From: an uncultured Clostridia bacterium
GTDB lineage: Bacteria; Bacillota; Clostridia; TANB77; CAG-508
Length of the DNA stretch: 64,000 nucleotides
Assembly (NCBI GenBank): GCA_934167495.1
Contig: CAKPKP010000006.1
Location: 10,789-74,788, forward strand
Reading direction: 5' to 3'
Under the pieces are notes generated by a model. The model was given only the letters and a program-made list of their open reading frames with translations, was not told where the DNA came from and ran no database searches. Made by a program: the position numbers and the translations under genes. This document shows, piece after piece, positions 10,357 to 47,735 of this stretch (its first letter is position 1; each line of letters starts with the position of its first letter).

Positions 10357-10923
10357 ATGGCAGAAGTATACATGGCAGGAGATTTAAGAAATGGAACAAC
10401 TTTTGAATTAGATAATTCAGTATATAAAGTAGTAGAGTTTCAACATGTTAAACCAGGAAAAGGAGCAGCTTTCGTAAGAACAAAATTAAAAAACGTTATA
10501 AATGGATCTGTTTTAGAAAGAACATTTAATCCATCAGAAAAATTACAAGGTGCAGAAATTGAAAAAAGAGATATGCAATACCTATATAATGATGAAGATT
10601 TATATTATTTCATGGATAATGAAACTTTTGAACAAATTCCATTAAACAAAGAACAATTAGGAGATACTTTAAAATACTTAAAAGAAAACATGAATGTAAA
10701 AATATTATCATTCAAAGGAAAAGTATTTGCAGTAGAACCACCTATATTTGTTGAATTAGAAGTTACATATACAGAACCAGGATTTAGTGGAAACACAACA
10801 ACTACATCTGGAAAACCAGCAACATTAGAAAATGGTTATGAAATATCTGTACCATTATTTGTTAATATTGGTGATGTAATAAGAATAGATACTAGAACTG
10901 GTGAATATATGGAAAGAATTTAA
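10357..10923 (+). CDS. efp: Elongation factor P
   Basis: [21 protein letters not shown] is the EF-P KOW region including the modified-Lys loop. Confidence 0.95.
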
Positions 10924-42620: not shown

Positions 42621-44171
42621 TTGAATAAAGGTAAAAGATTTTTTTCTAAATTAAAAAATTATAATAAATTACTTGAAGAAGTACTAGAAAAAAAATATTT
42701 TTCTGGAAATGCCAAAAATATTTTATTAAGCATGGCTTACAAAATTGAAAACTCATATGATGATTATAAAACTGTAAAAAGAAATGTTAAAACAAAAGAT
42801 GAATTTCTTGTTGAAACAATATATAATGTTCAAAATTATTGTGAACATATAAAATTAGTAGAGCCTAATAGTGAAAAAGCAGAATTATTAAAAAAATATA
42901 ATGTTTTAGCACTTACGAATGAAAAGGAAAAAAGCATTTTATCATTTCCAACAGAAATGGCTCTTTTATATGCCATATCAGACATTTCACCTAAATATTT
43001 TTATATAGATGAAGATTATACATTAAGAAAACAATTTCAATATATGTTAGTTGATGGGTACAATCAAAACAATATTGAAATATTAAAAAATTTTAATGGT
43101 TGGTCATGGTTTAATGAATATGATGAAACTTTAAATTTTGTGAATAATTTAATTTATCAAAATTTATTGATGTTATTAGGAGAAAAATTTTTAAATAATT
43201 GGAAAGAAAATTATACTCAAAATGTAGATAATATATATGAATTAAAAAATAAACTATCAATATTATATGGAAAAATTAATATGCAACGATTTTATATTTC
43301 AATGTGTAGAGTATTGATATTAAATTCAAGAAATAGAAATAAAATTATAAGAAAATTTGATAGAGTAAAATATGAACTTGAAAGAATAAGCAATAAAAAA
43401 ACTTTTTTAGATAGTGTTTCAGAAGAAAAAATAGAAGTTACAAAAAGAATAAAAAATATAGAAATTATAATGAAAAAAGAAATATTATTAAAAAAAGAAT
43501 TAAAGAAAAGAAATGATAAATTAGATAGCGATAAAAGAATACATAGTGTTAAACAACTAGTTCAAATATTAGAAAGAGAAAAGAATGAATATCAGAAAAT
43601 AATTAATCATTTAACTGAAATAGTAAAACCAAAAAATTATTTAATATATAAAGAACAATTAGACCAACAATACGATATAATAAGAGAATTAGAAGAAGCT
43701 GATTTAGAAGAGGAAATTGTAAAACTTCAAAAAGCATTTTTATCTTGTATGACACAAAAATTGCAAAATGTTCATACAAGAGATGATATTATAGATATGA
43801 TATATGAAATAAGATATTATAGAAAAATATATATGTATCATGAAAAAATGGTTAAAGATTATAAAAATATAGAAAATAGAATAGAAAAACTTTTAAAAGA
43901 AATAATTACAATTTCTTGCAAGTTTGGAATAATAAATATCTTTTGTATGGATATAAATTATAATTATGAATTAGTATCTTTATTTTTAGATACTGATATA
44001 ATAGAATTAGAAGAAATAAAATTATTATTAAAATTAAATTATTCTAAAAATAAATTGAAAGTAATTGTATATGATAAAGATATTGTTGAAAAAGAAGTAG
44101 AACTAAAATTTGATTTATCCGAAAAAGATTTAAAAGTAAAACTTAATAGGCCAGTAAGAATTTTTTTATAA
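42621..44171 (+). CDS. Hypothetical protein, 516 aa, Asn/Lys/Ile-rich
   Basis: Long ORF with good codon periodicity and no recognisable domain. Confidence 0.45.
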   Translation: MNKGKRFFSKLKNYNKLLEEVLEKKYFSGNAKNILLSMAYKIENSYDDYKTVKRNVKTKDEFLVETIYNVQNYCEHIKLVEPNSEKAELLKKYNVLALTNEKEKSILSFPTEMALLYAISDISPKYFYIDEDYTLRKQFQYMLVDGYNQNNIEILKNFNGWSWFNEYDETLNFVNNLIYQNLLMLLGEKFLNNWKENYTQNVDNIYELKNKLSILYGKINMQRFYISMCRVLILNSRNRNKIIRKFDRVKYELERISNKKTFLDSVSEEKIEVTKRIKNIEIIMKKEILLKKELKKRNDKLDSDKRIHSVKQLVQILEREKNEYQKIINHLTEIVKPKNYLIYKEQLDQQYDIIRELEEADLEEEIVKLQKAFLSCMTQKLQNVHTRDDIIDMIYEIRYYRKIYMYHEKMVKDYKNIENRIEKLLKEIITISCKFGIINIFCMDINYNYELVSLFLDTDIIELEEIKLLLKLNYSKNKLKVIVYDKDIVEKEVELKFDLSEKDLKVKLNRPVRIFL

Positions 44172-44189: not shown

Positions 44190-44630
44190 ATGAGAAAAAA
44201 AGTAATTATTTTATTTATTATTTGTATAATTATAGCTATAATATCTATTATATTTATAAGTAATAAAAATCAGAAACAAGAAAATCAAAATAATGAAAAT
44301 GTGTATTATATAGAATTGCAAGATGGCACTAAGCAAAATGTTAGTCCAAAAATATCAGAAAAAAAGACTTTTGAAAATTTAGATATAGTAAATGCTAGTA
44401 TTGTTTATTCAGATAATATATGCAAAATGAAGTTAAATGTAGAAAACAATTCAGATATTAAATCAGATGATATGATAATTAAAATAAATATTTTTGATAT
44501 CAATAATGATATCATGATTACTTTAACTGGCTTTGTCGCTGAAATAAGTCCAGGAAAATCAATAGAAGTAAATTTAGATTCAAGTTTTGATTATTCAAAT
44601 GCATATGATTATGAAATTTTAAGAAAATAA
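44190..44630 (+). CDS. Hypothetical N-terminally anchored small secreted protein
   Basis: TM/signal-anchor (IILFIICIIIAIISIIFI) followed by a beta-rich domain. Confidence 0.45.
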   Translation: MRKKVIILFIICIIIAIISIIFISNKNQKQENQNNENVYYIELQDGTKQNVSPKISEKKTFENLDIVNASIVYSDNICKMKLNVENNSDIKSDDMIIKINIFDINNDIMITLTGFVAEISPGKSIEVNLDSSFDYSNAYDYEILRK

Positions 44631-44765
44631 TGCTAGAAATGGAAAAGTGTAAAAAGCATATTACAAATATTTTACAATATGTTTACAAAGAGGTAATATA
44701 GATTGTAAAATCATATAGAATGTGATAAAAATATAATAGGATATTAATGAAAAGGAGATTTTAAT

Positions 44766-47735
44766 ATGAAAAAGTCTATGAAAATATTTTATATCTTTAT
44801 TATATTTTTATTTTTGTTTTCTGTTACCGCAAATGCTTTTACAGTAACACTTAGCGGTTCAGAAAATAGCGTTAAAAGTGGCGAATATGTAATATTAAAT
44901 ATAAAAACAGATGAAAAAATAGTTGCTTCAAATTTTTACATAGATTATGATAGCGATAAATTTGAATTTGTTCAAGGAATAAATGTGTCAGCCGCTATAA
45001 ATAATGGAAAATTAGCATGTATATATGCAGATATAACTGGAAATGGAACTGATAATTTTCAAGTGAGGTTTAAAGCAAAAGAATTAAGTAAAGTTTCAAA
45101 GGCTGATTTTTCAATATCAGATTATAAATTTAGAGCAGTAGATAAAGATAGTTCTTATGAAGGGGAAGATGTAAAATTCACATCTAAAAATATAAGTATA
45201 GAAGTTAATCCTTCAAATACAGTAACTCCAACAATTACACCAACTCCTACTGTAGTGCCAACGCCAACAAATTCTCCAGCACCTACAACAGTACCATCAC
45301 CATCTGTTACACCAACACCAACATCAACAGTAACGCCAACAGCTGTTCCTACACAAACTCCAAGACCAACAACAACAATAAATGGAAACAGTAATGACAA
45401 TACTAAATCAGATAAAAAAATACCTAATACAGGAAGCAAAGCTATAATATTAATAGTTTTTGGAGTTATATGTTTAGTATCAGCAGTAATATTTAAAGTA
45501 AAAGAAAATAATATAAAGAAATTGTTTATGTTTTTAGCTTTATTTATATCAGTAACTTTAGTAACAAGTAATGTTAAAGCTGTATCAAATACAGAATTAA
45601 AAATAGACATTAATAATTCAGTAATAAATAACCAAAAAAGTTTACTAATATCTTTAGATAATGCAGATACTACTAGAAAGATAACAAAAACACAATTAGT
45701 TGAAAAAGCAAAAGAAAAAAATATAAATATAAAATCTATTTCAAATAGGAATAATCAAAATATAGAAAGTAATGATTTAGTTGCAACTGGTTATATAGCT
45801 AATATAGATAATGAGAACTATAAAGTAGTTTTATATGGAGATTCAAATGGAGATGGATATATTTGCGATGCAGATGATCTTACAGAAATATTAAATGATT
45901 ATATTGGAAAAAAGAAATTAACAAATGAATATAAATTAGCAGCAAATTTAGCAAACAATGATGATGTTTTAGATAGTGATGATTTAATGCAAATGATAAA
46001 TAGGTTTTTAGGAAAACTAAATGGTAGTTTAGTAGTAAATTATCCAGGAAGTAGCAATCCAACACCAACAGCAACTGTTAGCCCAAGCCAAATACCAACT
46101 GCTACTCCAACAGTAACACCAACACCAAGTTCAATACCAACACCTACTCCAGCAGTAACACCAACACCAAGTTCAATACCAACACCTACTCCAACATCAA
46201 CAGTAACACCAAGTCCAACGTCAACTCCTACAACTGAGCCTACTGCAACGCCAACAACAGAACCAACAGCGACACCAACAATTGAGCCTACACCAACTCC
46301 AACACCTACAACTACACCAGAACCATCAAACATAATAAATAAAACTATAAAAATCGCAAATGTAGATAGAAATGATAATCCTGCTCAAGGAATAAAAATA
46401 CAAGTTAAAGATAGTAGTGGAAAAATAGTAAAAAATAATGATTTAGATTATTTTATCTCAGACTCAGAAGGAAATATAAACATTAATATAGCAATTGATA
46501 AAACAAAATTTGAATTACCACAATATTTAATTGATAAAAATCAAACATTTGAAGAGTCAATAGCAACATACTACACTTTTAGTCAAGTATGCGAAGATGG
46601 GGAAAAAGATGAAAATGGATATTTAAGTAATGGATATTATTTTAATGATGGAGAAAAAATACTAACAATAGCATGTACTGAATCATATGGAGAATACTAT
46701 ATTACTAGCTCTGCTATTAATTCAACTAAGAACTTAGTAAAATTAAAAAATGAAAATGGCGAAGACAAGAATATTATAATAACAAAAGAAGATGTTTCAT
46801 TAAAAATACTTTATAAAAAATTATCAGATTTTAGCGGATTTAAATATGAAAATATCATGAATTATGATGAAACAGAAAACAAATGGAGTTATAGTATAAA
46901 AGTTCAAGTAAGAGATTCAAAATTTAAATTAGAATATTTTTATGGGGAGGATTTAACTAATAAATATGAACTTGAATTTACAGAAAATGAATTAGAAAAA
47001 GTTATAAATATTCCAGATAATATTGATAATTTAAATATAAAAGTTATAAATAAAGATGACAATACATGTGTTGAAACATATACAACAAGTTATGGTATGT
47101 ATATGTGGGGAAAAGGATATAATGATCATTGGGAATATGCTATAAAAGTAGAAAGTAAATATAAAATAAGATACACAATAAATTCAGAAACACAAGTAAT
47201 ATTAGCAGAAAAAGAAAAGAAGTTTACAGATTTTAAATATACCGATAAAGTTACTTTTGAATTATTAGATGAAAATGGAAATGTTTTAAATAAAATTACA
47301 GAACAAGATATATTTAAAGCATTAAAGATTACAGTTCCATCATCAAACACAAAAACTTTGCAATTCAAAATAAAAAATGTAAACACAGATAATGAGCCTC
47401 TAGCAGGAATTTCATATACTGTAATAAATGATAACAATGAAGGATATAATTGTACTATTTCAGATGAAGAAGGAATTTCTAATGTAGAACCTGACTTTGA
47501 AATTGGAAAAACATCACACTTATATATAACTCAAAAAAATAGTATACAAGGTTATAAATCAGATACTGATATTATAGATATAGAAGTTACAGTAACATCA
47601 GATGGAGTAAGTGTTAGTATACCTCGAATAAAAGAAGGCAGATTAAACGAATTAAGCAATGGTAAAATAATTCAAGTAGATGGTTCAAATGTTTACATTG
47701 AGGTAGTACATCAAAAAGAGAGTACAGAAGTTTAA
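44766..47735 (+). CDS. Composite surface protein: cohesin domain, Pro/Thr linker and an internal (I/L)PxTG sorting signal, then a second signal peptide, a type-I dockerin, a Pro/Thr linker and repeated Ig/prealbumin-like domains
   Basis: Signal peptide, then a cohesin-like region (…[19 protein letters not shown]…). IPNTG at 45420-45434 is followed by a TM stretch and a KVKENNIKK tail. With no stop codon, the frame continues into [20 protein letters not shown], then two dockerin repeats ([15 protein letters not shown]…, [21 protein letters not shown]), then TPT linkers and a roughly 450-aa beta-rich C-terminus. Confidence 0.55.

Follow-up and report, generated by a model that had tools for sequence, protein, structure and literature searches.

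A cohesin and a dockerin parted by a sorting signal and a second signal peptide in one gene of gut Clostridia: a probable self-anchoring surface-display precursor

The 64,000-nucleotide stretch of DNA analysed here (the window; positions 10,789 to 74,788 of contig CAKPKP010000006.1, assembly GCA_934167495.1, from an uncultured Clostridia bacterium) harbors at 44766-47735 (+) a single uninterrupted open reading frame (ORF) of 989 amino acids (aa), in which a cohesin, a sorting signal, a second signal peptide and a dockerin follow one another. This is exactly the layout claimed by an earlier sequence-only reading of the same DNA, and it is present both in the sequence and in the hydropathy profile. 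Three hydrophobic segments were observed by hydropathy, located at aa 1-24 (ending in ANA), aa 226-243 (straight after IPNTG) and aa 253-268 (followed by NVKA), with the nine residues KVKENNIKK separating the second from the third. The sorting signal is complete, encompassing IPNTG, an 18-residue hydrophobic span and KVKENNIKK as its positively charged tail, and it is not C-terminal, as it ends at aa 252 of 989 and a further 737 residues follow in frame. The N-terminal signal peptide is kept in all members of the family described below; by the -3/-1 rule it would be cleaved after ANA, and a second signal-peptidase cleavage is predicted after VKA272.

Whole-protein scans with Pfam and NCBIfam returned a weak LPXTG-anchor match only and no cohesin match; the two Pro/Thr-rich linkers interfere with the scans, and the domains are divergent. 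Taken alone, aa 25-151 scored 22.8 bits against Pfam Cohesin PF00963 (E = 1.1e-4; gathering score 24.1), aa 350-422 scored 15.5 bits against Pfam Dockerin_1 PF00404 (E = 0.02, profile positions 1-57 of 57; gathering score 22.9), and the sorting-signal segment scored 17.7 bits against Pfam Gram_pos_anchor PF00746 (gathering score 20) and 12.6 against TIGR01167 (cut-off 15.9). Since the single-sequence cohesin and dockerin scores lay below threshold, family profiles were built from homologues. The check with hidden Markov models (HMMs) suggested by the sequence-only reading therefore came out in two parts, the cohesin and the dockerin being recovered by the family profiles and the single-sequence scores of the window protein staying under the gathering cut-offs. 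With the cohesin profile, the top five matches among PDB sequences were all cohesins, the best being Clostridium thermocellum 3ul4_A (E = 9.5e-5), and the entries of the C. perfringens NagJ cohesin were matched at E values of 5e-3 to 9e-3. An AlphaFold2 (AF2) model of aa 1-431, computed from a 26-sequence alignment, gave the cohesin a predicted local distance difference test (pLDDT) of 93-97 (aa 30-150), and about 35 of the 36 best Foldseek matches in the PDB were cohesins (2vn5_C, E = 9.5e-9; 2jh2_A, template modelling score 0.71), so that the cohesin beta-sandwich fold of aa 25-151 is confirmed at the level of the predicted structure.

The dockerin was recovered in the same manner. A 31-sequence profile of spacer plus dockerin matched C. 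thermocellum dockerin 2ccl_B in the PDB at E = 3e-6, with about 26 of 29 matches being dockerins, and Pfam Dockerin_1 was matched unaided by 11 fused relatives (best E = 7.8e-8), as was the sorting-signal HMM by five relatives (best E = 1.4e-5). The matches to the window dockerin include the NagH dockerin of C. perfringens, and with NagJ among the cohesin matches the comparison with that species drawn by the sequence-only reading proved apt. The duplicated loop-helix (F-hand) motif is present, with helices modelled at aa 369-379, 387-393 and 404-414 and calcium-binding Asp/Asn residues in both loops (predicted calcium sites). Loop 1 carries D1, N3, D5 and D12 and is canonical except for a Cys at position 9, which all the closer relatives share and which gives way to Asn in those further removed. 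These observations confirmed a dockerin fold for aa 353-425, closest to type I. The spacer preceding it was considered as a type II/III X-module and rejected, as it exhibits weak beta-grasp-like matches only.

The open frame recurs widely. The identical protein is recorded on 29 contigs (NCBI, ENA); the 90% cluster comprises 66 variants, of which the 15 listed are all 979-995 aa in length; and the gene is found in the same context on at least 24 contigs, each from an independent metagenome of the human gut, Hadza samples included. An independent run, with a protein that differs at other places, has exactly the same DNA at the junction, and two proteins with 36-39% identity over aa 1-430 (P0002 and P0003) exhibit the full N-terminal arrangement in one ORF, followed by an unrelated cargo. 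A first homologue search was swamped by matches to Pro/Thr-rich linkers, and P0004-P0120 were rejected as relatives, being spurious matches to linker 2. A word-indexed search returned four proteins for the junction alignment and none for the cargo and missed the 98% identical P0001 in both cases; negatives of this search are unreliable for N/K-rich, low-GC (guanine-cytosine) proteins, which is a limit of the tool. An exhaustive search with the spacer-dockerin profile yielded 673 representatives at E <= 1e-3, 37 of them at E <= 1e-30, and the best 150 of the 673 were classified with local HMMs. Cohesin and dockerin are both present in 53 of these 150, and about 46 of the 53 share the junction, composed of LPxTG or LPxAG, a first transmembrane span, a K/R loop and a second span with an AxA-like end, at 20-40% identity and with unrelated cargos. 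The shared pattern consists of 0-7 polar residues after the motif, a span of 15-20 residues, the loop (median 9 residues, with 4 K/R versus 1 D/E) and a second span of 12-20 residues, whose ends among the relatives fit the -3/-1 rule (VYA|A, VKA|V, VNA|I). LPxTG or LPxAG occupies the position equivalent to IPNTG in at least 40 of the 44 parsed family members. About 90 others of the best 150 are standalone proteins, such as P0123, and the second span plus c-region of the window protein aligns with their true N-terminal signal peptides. Most relatives possess no Met in the junction.

The conservation across these sequences strongly supports the open frame as real and not an error, and with it the reading of a single precursor. 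One of the two possibilities raised by the sequence-only reading, a single polypeptide for sortase to split, was thus upheld, with the same frame in independent assemblies and the same order in divergent representatives bearing different cargos. Separate translation of the second half was rejected as unlikely: the internal ATG at aa 255 has no Shine-Dalgarno-like motif before it, its product would lack the n-region of a signal peptide, and the junction Met is missing from most relatives.

Differential arrangements of the same modules were observed at related loci, all of which belong to gut metagenome-assembled genomes (MAGs) of uncultured Clostridia, Clostridium sp. or Clostridiaceae, the closest in the genome scan being 36% identical among the matches listed. 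At L050 the modules lie in two genes, the upstream one reading cohesin...LPQTG-hydrophobic-NKIRVDRFKDIK-TAA, after which aGGAAGGGa and then the ATG of P0123 follow, the latter encoding a signal peptide, spacer, dockerin and cargo. The stop, Shine-Dalgarno sequence and ATG of L050 sit exactly where the K-rich loop of the junction lies in the fused form. L050 appears to hold the split, ancestor-like form, and by this comparison the fused form is presumably the outcome of losing the stop and the intergenic spacer, with the charged tail of the sorting signal merging with the n-region of the signal peptide. The claim of two fused genes, the other possibility raised earlier, would accordingly hold as evolutionary history only, its version as a sequence error or missed stop at 45510-45530 being refuted. 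Four fused relatives (P0127-P0130) exhibit the two-span hairpin without a sorting motif, which suggests that splitting at the second span is independent of sortase and that their cohesin would stay membrane-bound. At L007 (3088-4710) and L008 (5473-7095), a hairpin-type fused gene is directly preceded by a separate cohesin-LPQTG gene of 214-218 aa; L005 carries two tandem fused genes; and at L001 (9493-14211) a cohesin of 158 aa, with an N-terminal membrane anchor only, sits directly upstream of a tandem pair of fused paralogues of 687 and 683 aa, whose cargos look like BspA-type leucine-rich repeats when judged by eye. Mini-proteins of about 310 aa, namely P0122 (L003 2864-3823), P0138 and P0154, comprise a signal peptide, cohesin, spacer and dockerin without cargo or sorting signal, and could be adaptors or chain extenders polymerising head to tail. 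In addition, about 25 loci in gut Clostridia MAGs among the matches listed (L011, L015-L042; e.g., L016 2262-6309) harbor a three-gene cassette composed of a cohesin of about 350 aa with a C-terminal LPKTG, a sortase of about 200 aa (TLITC) and a protein of 330-750 aa with a C-terminal dockerin. This cassette looks like a dedicated-sortase cohesin-dockerin display system, and because all three are neighbours at these loci, the cohesin family is tied to sortase anchoring and to dockerin partners.

Table 1. Features of the display gene in the window.
Feature	Residues (aa)	Window position (nt)	Strand	Basis or remark
Shine-Dalgarno aaaGGAG		44751..44757	+	8 nt upstream of ATG; read from sequence
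N-terminal Sec signal peptide, predicted cut after ANA	1-24	44766..44837	+	hydropathy; AF2 helix 2-18
Cohesin domain	25-151	44838..45218	+	Pfam, PDB profile, AF2, Foldseek
Pro/Thr-rich linker 1 and N-rich stretch	152-218	45219..45419	+	stalk from cohesin to sorting motif; pLDDT <50, predicted disordered
Sortase motif IPNTG	219-223	45420..45434	+	sequence; position is LPxTG/LPxAG in relatives
Hydrophobic span 1 of sorting signal	226-243	45441..45494	+	hydropathy; AF2 helix 224-244
K-rich loop KVKENNIKK	244-252	45495..45521	+	sorting-signal charged tail and n-region of second signal peptide
Second signal-peptide-like segment (h-region and c-region NVKA)	253-272	45522..45581	+	predicted signal-peptidase cut after VKA
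Spacer domain	273-352	45582..45821	+	small alpha/beta domain packing on dockerin
Dockerin	353-425	45822..46040	+	calcium loops at nt 45840-45878 and 45945-45983
Pro/Thr-rich linker 2	431-520	46056..46325	+	sequence; 90 aa
Cargo	521-989	46326..47732	+	beta-rich region and one SpaA domain

The cargo of the window protein (Table 1) exhibits a SpaA/prealbumin-like (Cna-B type) domain at aa ~867-950 (nt 47364-47615; 27.1 bits against Pfam SpaA, gathering score 23.1) and no other Pfam family match. No internal repeats were found in it, so the description of this part as a large repeated beta domain in the sequence-only reading was not borne out, and no cargo homologues were found outside the 90% cluster in the collected sequence sets. 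Among 44 fused members, the cargos are chiefly Big_2 (11 members), Big-like, Big_3, Invasin_D4, SpaA, an RCC1 propeller and a ricin lectin, together with a single GH42 match. Since adhesin-type modules, Ig-like or lectin-like, prevail among the cargos of the family, the likely role of the system is the display of adhesins or binding proteins by an uncultured human-gut Clostridia species, not the formation of a multi-enzyme complex.

Further features were observed around the gene. The window has a GC content of 26.7%, and its housekeeping neighbours include FtsK, a beta-CASP RNase and GH15. The two genes directly upstream (window 42621-44171 and 44190-44630) always accompany the display gene in independent assemblies (L002, L045-L049); the first encodes a K/E-rich protein of 516 aa without a Pfam match and the second a protein of 146 aa that starts with a membrane anchor at its N-terminus and contains a small beta-rich domain. 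Two antisense ORFs, 45155-45610 (-) and 46040-46333 (-), of 151 and 97 aa with GVGV repeats, lie opposite the Pro/Thr-rich linkers; they arise from the repetitive ACN/CCN codons and are not genes. A promoter and terminator scan found no terminator and is uninformative in such AT-rich DNA.

On the basis of the layout and its conservation, the gene probably encodes a self-anchoring surface-display precursor, which would be split during secretion and whose halves would be re-joined non-covalently on the surface. The first signal peptide would start Sec export, and the cohesin with its Pro/Thr-rich stalk would cross the membrane, after which IPNTG, span 1 and the K-rich stretch would behave like an ordinary cell-wall sorting signal and halt the transfer. 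The K-rich stretch would double as the n-region of the internal second signal peptide (span 2 plus VKA) and thereby re-initiate export, so that the two spans would make up a hairpin whose positive loop stays in the cytoplasm, and everything downstream (spacer, dockerin, second linker and cargo) would be exported. The junction as a whole is thus a full sorting signal set directly against a full n-h-c signal peptide. Signal peptidase would then cut after VKA272 and free the dockerin-cargo half, sortase would cut IPNT|G and join the cohesin stalk (aa 25-222) to peptidoglycan, and a hairpin of about 49 aa would remain in the membrane. The dockerin would finally bind a wall-linked cohesin, its own or that of a neighbour, leaving the cargo held by its N-terminal end, reversibly and non-covalently, in a 1:1 ratio with the anchors and near its own anchor at the time of secretion. 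The structural model is consistent with the docking step. Its predicted template modelling score (pTM) for aa 1-431 is 0.68, with about 140 residues disordered, and the spacer-dockerin unit alone is estimated to give a pTM of only ~0.36; the value implies that AF2 places the cohesin and the spacer-dockerin confidently against each other and that the cohesin may pack on the spacer-dockerin of the same chain.

Several observations weigh against this precursor model. No sortase with the TLxTC signature was found within the 64 kb window. When the single sequence is scanned, Cohesin, Dockerin_1 and the LPXTG anchor each score under the curated Pfam and NCBIfam cut-offs. The Cys of dockerin loop 1 (aa 367, nt 45864-45866) occupies a position that is usually Asn or Asp in dockerins, and loop 2 is atypical, with a one-residue insertion and fewer acidic ligands (N, N, D, D, D). 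The predicted cohesin-dockerin contact is indicated indirectly, through the pTM, and may or may not use the canonical interface, and the cohesin-spacer-dockerin mini-proteins suggest binding in trans, as chains, rather than strictly to a protein's own cohesin. Moreover, the module order, the identities of cohesin and dockerin and the conservation of the junction were observed, and every processing step is inferred from them.

Two other readings accept the fused frame. It is rather unlikely that the protein stays one polypeptide with the second site uncut, the spacer, dockerin and cargo remaining on the two-span hairpin and the cohesin-dockerin contact bridging membrane and wall, or the cargo being simply membrane-tethered. 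The cut after VKA272 is a prediction, span 2 is short (16 aa) and comes directly after another span, AF2 renders the two spans as a helical hairpin, and linker 2, with its 90 aa, could lead from a membrane anchor across the wall to the cargo, all of which agree with an uncut hairpin. Yet span 2 and the c-region are homologous to cleavable signal peptides of the standalone relatives, the small residues at -3/-1 are kept in nearly all members, and a membrane-tethered dockerin would leave the cohesin-dockerin pair without an obvious purpose. It is also improbable, and a little more so, that the precursor is processed as in the favored model and its own cohesin and dockerin are not partners, each binding other proteins in a heterogeneous network or chains. 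The extra cohesins at L001 (membrane-tethered) and at L007 and L008 (with LPQTG) would provide such partners, and the mini-proteins without cargo resemble chain extenders; against this, no second cohesin or dockerin gene was found in the 64 kb window, the pTM suggests a mutual fit of the two modules within one chain, and the 1:1 ratio given by the fusion would be purposeless if they were not partners.

The chance is negligible that two adjacent genes, one for a wall-anchored cohesin and one for a secreted dockerin protein, merely seem fused through a sequencing or assembly error or a recent stop loss near 45510-45530 and are translated separately. The split form of L050 and an in-frame stop in L051 speak for it; the 29 identical contigs, the independent assemblies with their full-length variants, the unchanged junction DNA, the some 46 divergent fused representatives and the unsuitable internal start all speak against it. 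The stop in L051 (3-260) lies in the second span (KAGG-stop-MLAITVV), with garbled sequence upstream and a coverage of 2.4x, and is probably a sequencing error or a pseudogene.

The chances are about even that the gene is the founding example of a widespread, undescribed secretion design of gut Clostridia, in which one gene would yield a sortase-linked cohesin anchor and a dockerin-tagged cargo, split by two host proteases and re-assembled non-covalently, possibly ahead of wall incorporation of the anchor, with freely exchangeable cargo modules. If true, this would represent a plug-in system of natural origin for adhesins tethered by their N-terminal end, with the 1:1 ratio of anchor to cargo built in, and the N-terminal LPXTG design, which has been discussed up to now in connection with streptococcal Zmp proteases, would extend to another lineage. 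The retention of the released half on the cell would likewise become readable from the sequence, through the cohesin and the dockerin, which would make the Zmp-type model directly testable. Cohesin-dockerin pairs in abundant uncultured human-gut Clostridia would then serve adhesin-like display rather than enzyme complexes. Standard annotation misses these genes, whose products have no Pfam domain on record, and a one-gene anchor and cargo at a fixed ratio would be of practical interest for Gram-positive surface display.

Among known systems, cellulosomes and amylosomes differ from the window protein, which has a single cohesin and a single dockerin, no further gene of this kind in the window, and a family whose cargos are not mainly carbohydrate-active enzymes (CAZymes); the proposal of a compact cohesin-dockerin surface module outside a cellulosome is supported. 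The three-gene MAG cassette shares the same cohesin family, as detected with a local HMM from the window relatives, and the principle of a wall-linked cohesin with docked cargo, whereas its components are separate genes with a dedicated sortase, its dockerin is C-terminal rather than N-terminal, and it has no hairpin junction. The C. perfringens pair of NagJ cohesin and NagH dockerin (PDB 2ozn/2jh2/2o4e) is comparable in its use away from plant cell walls, in its low-GC Clostridium-like organism and in its sequence and fold matches, but the C. perfringens pairs join secreted glycosidases and toxins, with cohesin and dockerin on different proteins and neither a sorting signal nor a second signal peptide between them. 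Amy4 of Ruminococcus bromii is an example of an enzyme with one cohesin and one dockerin. Monovalent adaptor scaffoldins with one cohesin and one dockerin are also known (PMC11557425); like the window protein they combine both in one polypeptide, and P0122, P0138 and P0154 fit this class, whereas adaptors stay in one piece and the window protein, in which a complete sorting signal and a signal peptide lie between cohesin and dockerin, is predicted to yield two proteins. The ScaE-type scaffoldins of Ruminococcus comprise one cohesin, a linker and LPXTG, are fixed to the wall by sortase and dock dockerin proteins (PMC11557425; bioRxiv 10.64898/2026.02.05.704116). They resemble the first half of the window protein in the order cohesin, linker and sorting signal, and the dockerin of the window protein follows a domain packed against it, as is the case in X-dockerins. 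In Ruminococcus, however, the anchor is encoded apart from its partner, which is a scaffoldin or CttA of a cellulosome, and the X-module is of the Ig-like kind; the spacer of the window protein is beta-grasp-like, its dockerin is closest to type I, and it has no CAZyme cargo. Its layout is not mentioned in either of these two recent surveys, and no description of a cohesin and a dockerin with a sorting signal and a signal peptide between them was found in open-access full text.

The closest precedent for the junction itself, not named in the sequence-only reading, is provided by the streptococcal Zmp/IgA1 proteases. ZmpA (the IgA1 protease) as well as ZmpB, ZmpC and ZmpD comprise a signal peptide, an N-terminal LPXTG, two spans, a second signal-peptidase site and the main extracellular part (PMC3518915, citing Bender & Weiser 2006), and the second span of the streptococcal Zmp proteins has been proposed as a second signal peptide (PMC3518915). 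All five elements occur in the same order in the window protein, and the same secretion model is proposed for it. The two differ in that the proteases carry G5 and M26 domains and have only a short segment before LPXTG, where the window protein has a folded cohesin; in that a dockerin, an explicit device for re-association, opens the part of the window protein that follows the second signal peptide; and in their hosts, Streptococcus and Gemella versus gut Clostridia. Neither the window protein nor any of 44 relatives matched Pfam G5 or Peptidase_M26 (HExxH), and no sequence relationship to the Zmp proteins was found; the resemblance is one of topology, not of ancestry. What is new in the window gene and its relatives is the combination of Zmp-type N-terminal sortase anchoring with cohesin-dockerin docking, each of which is known separately.

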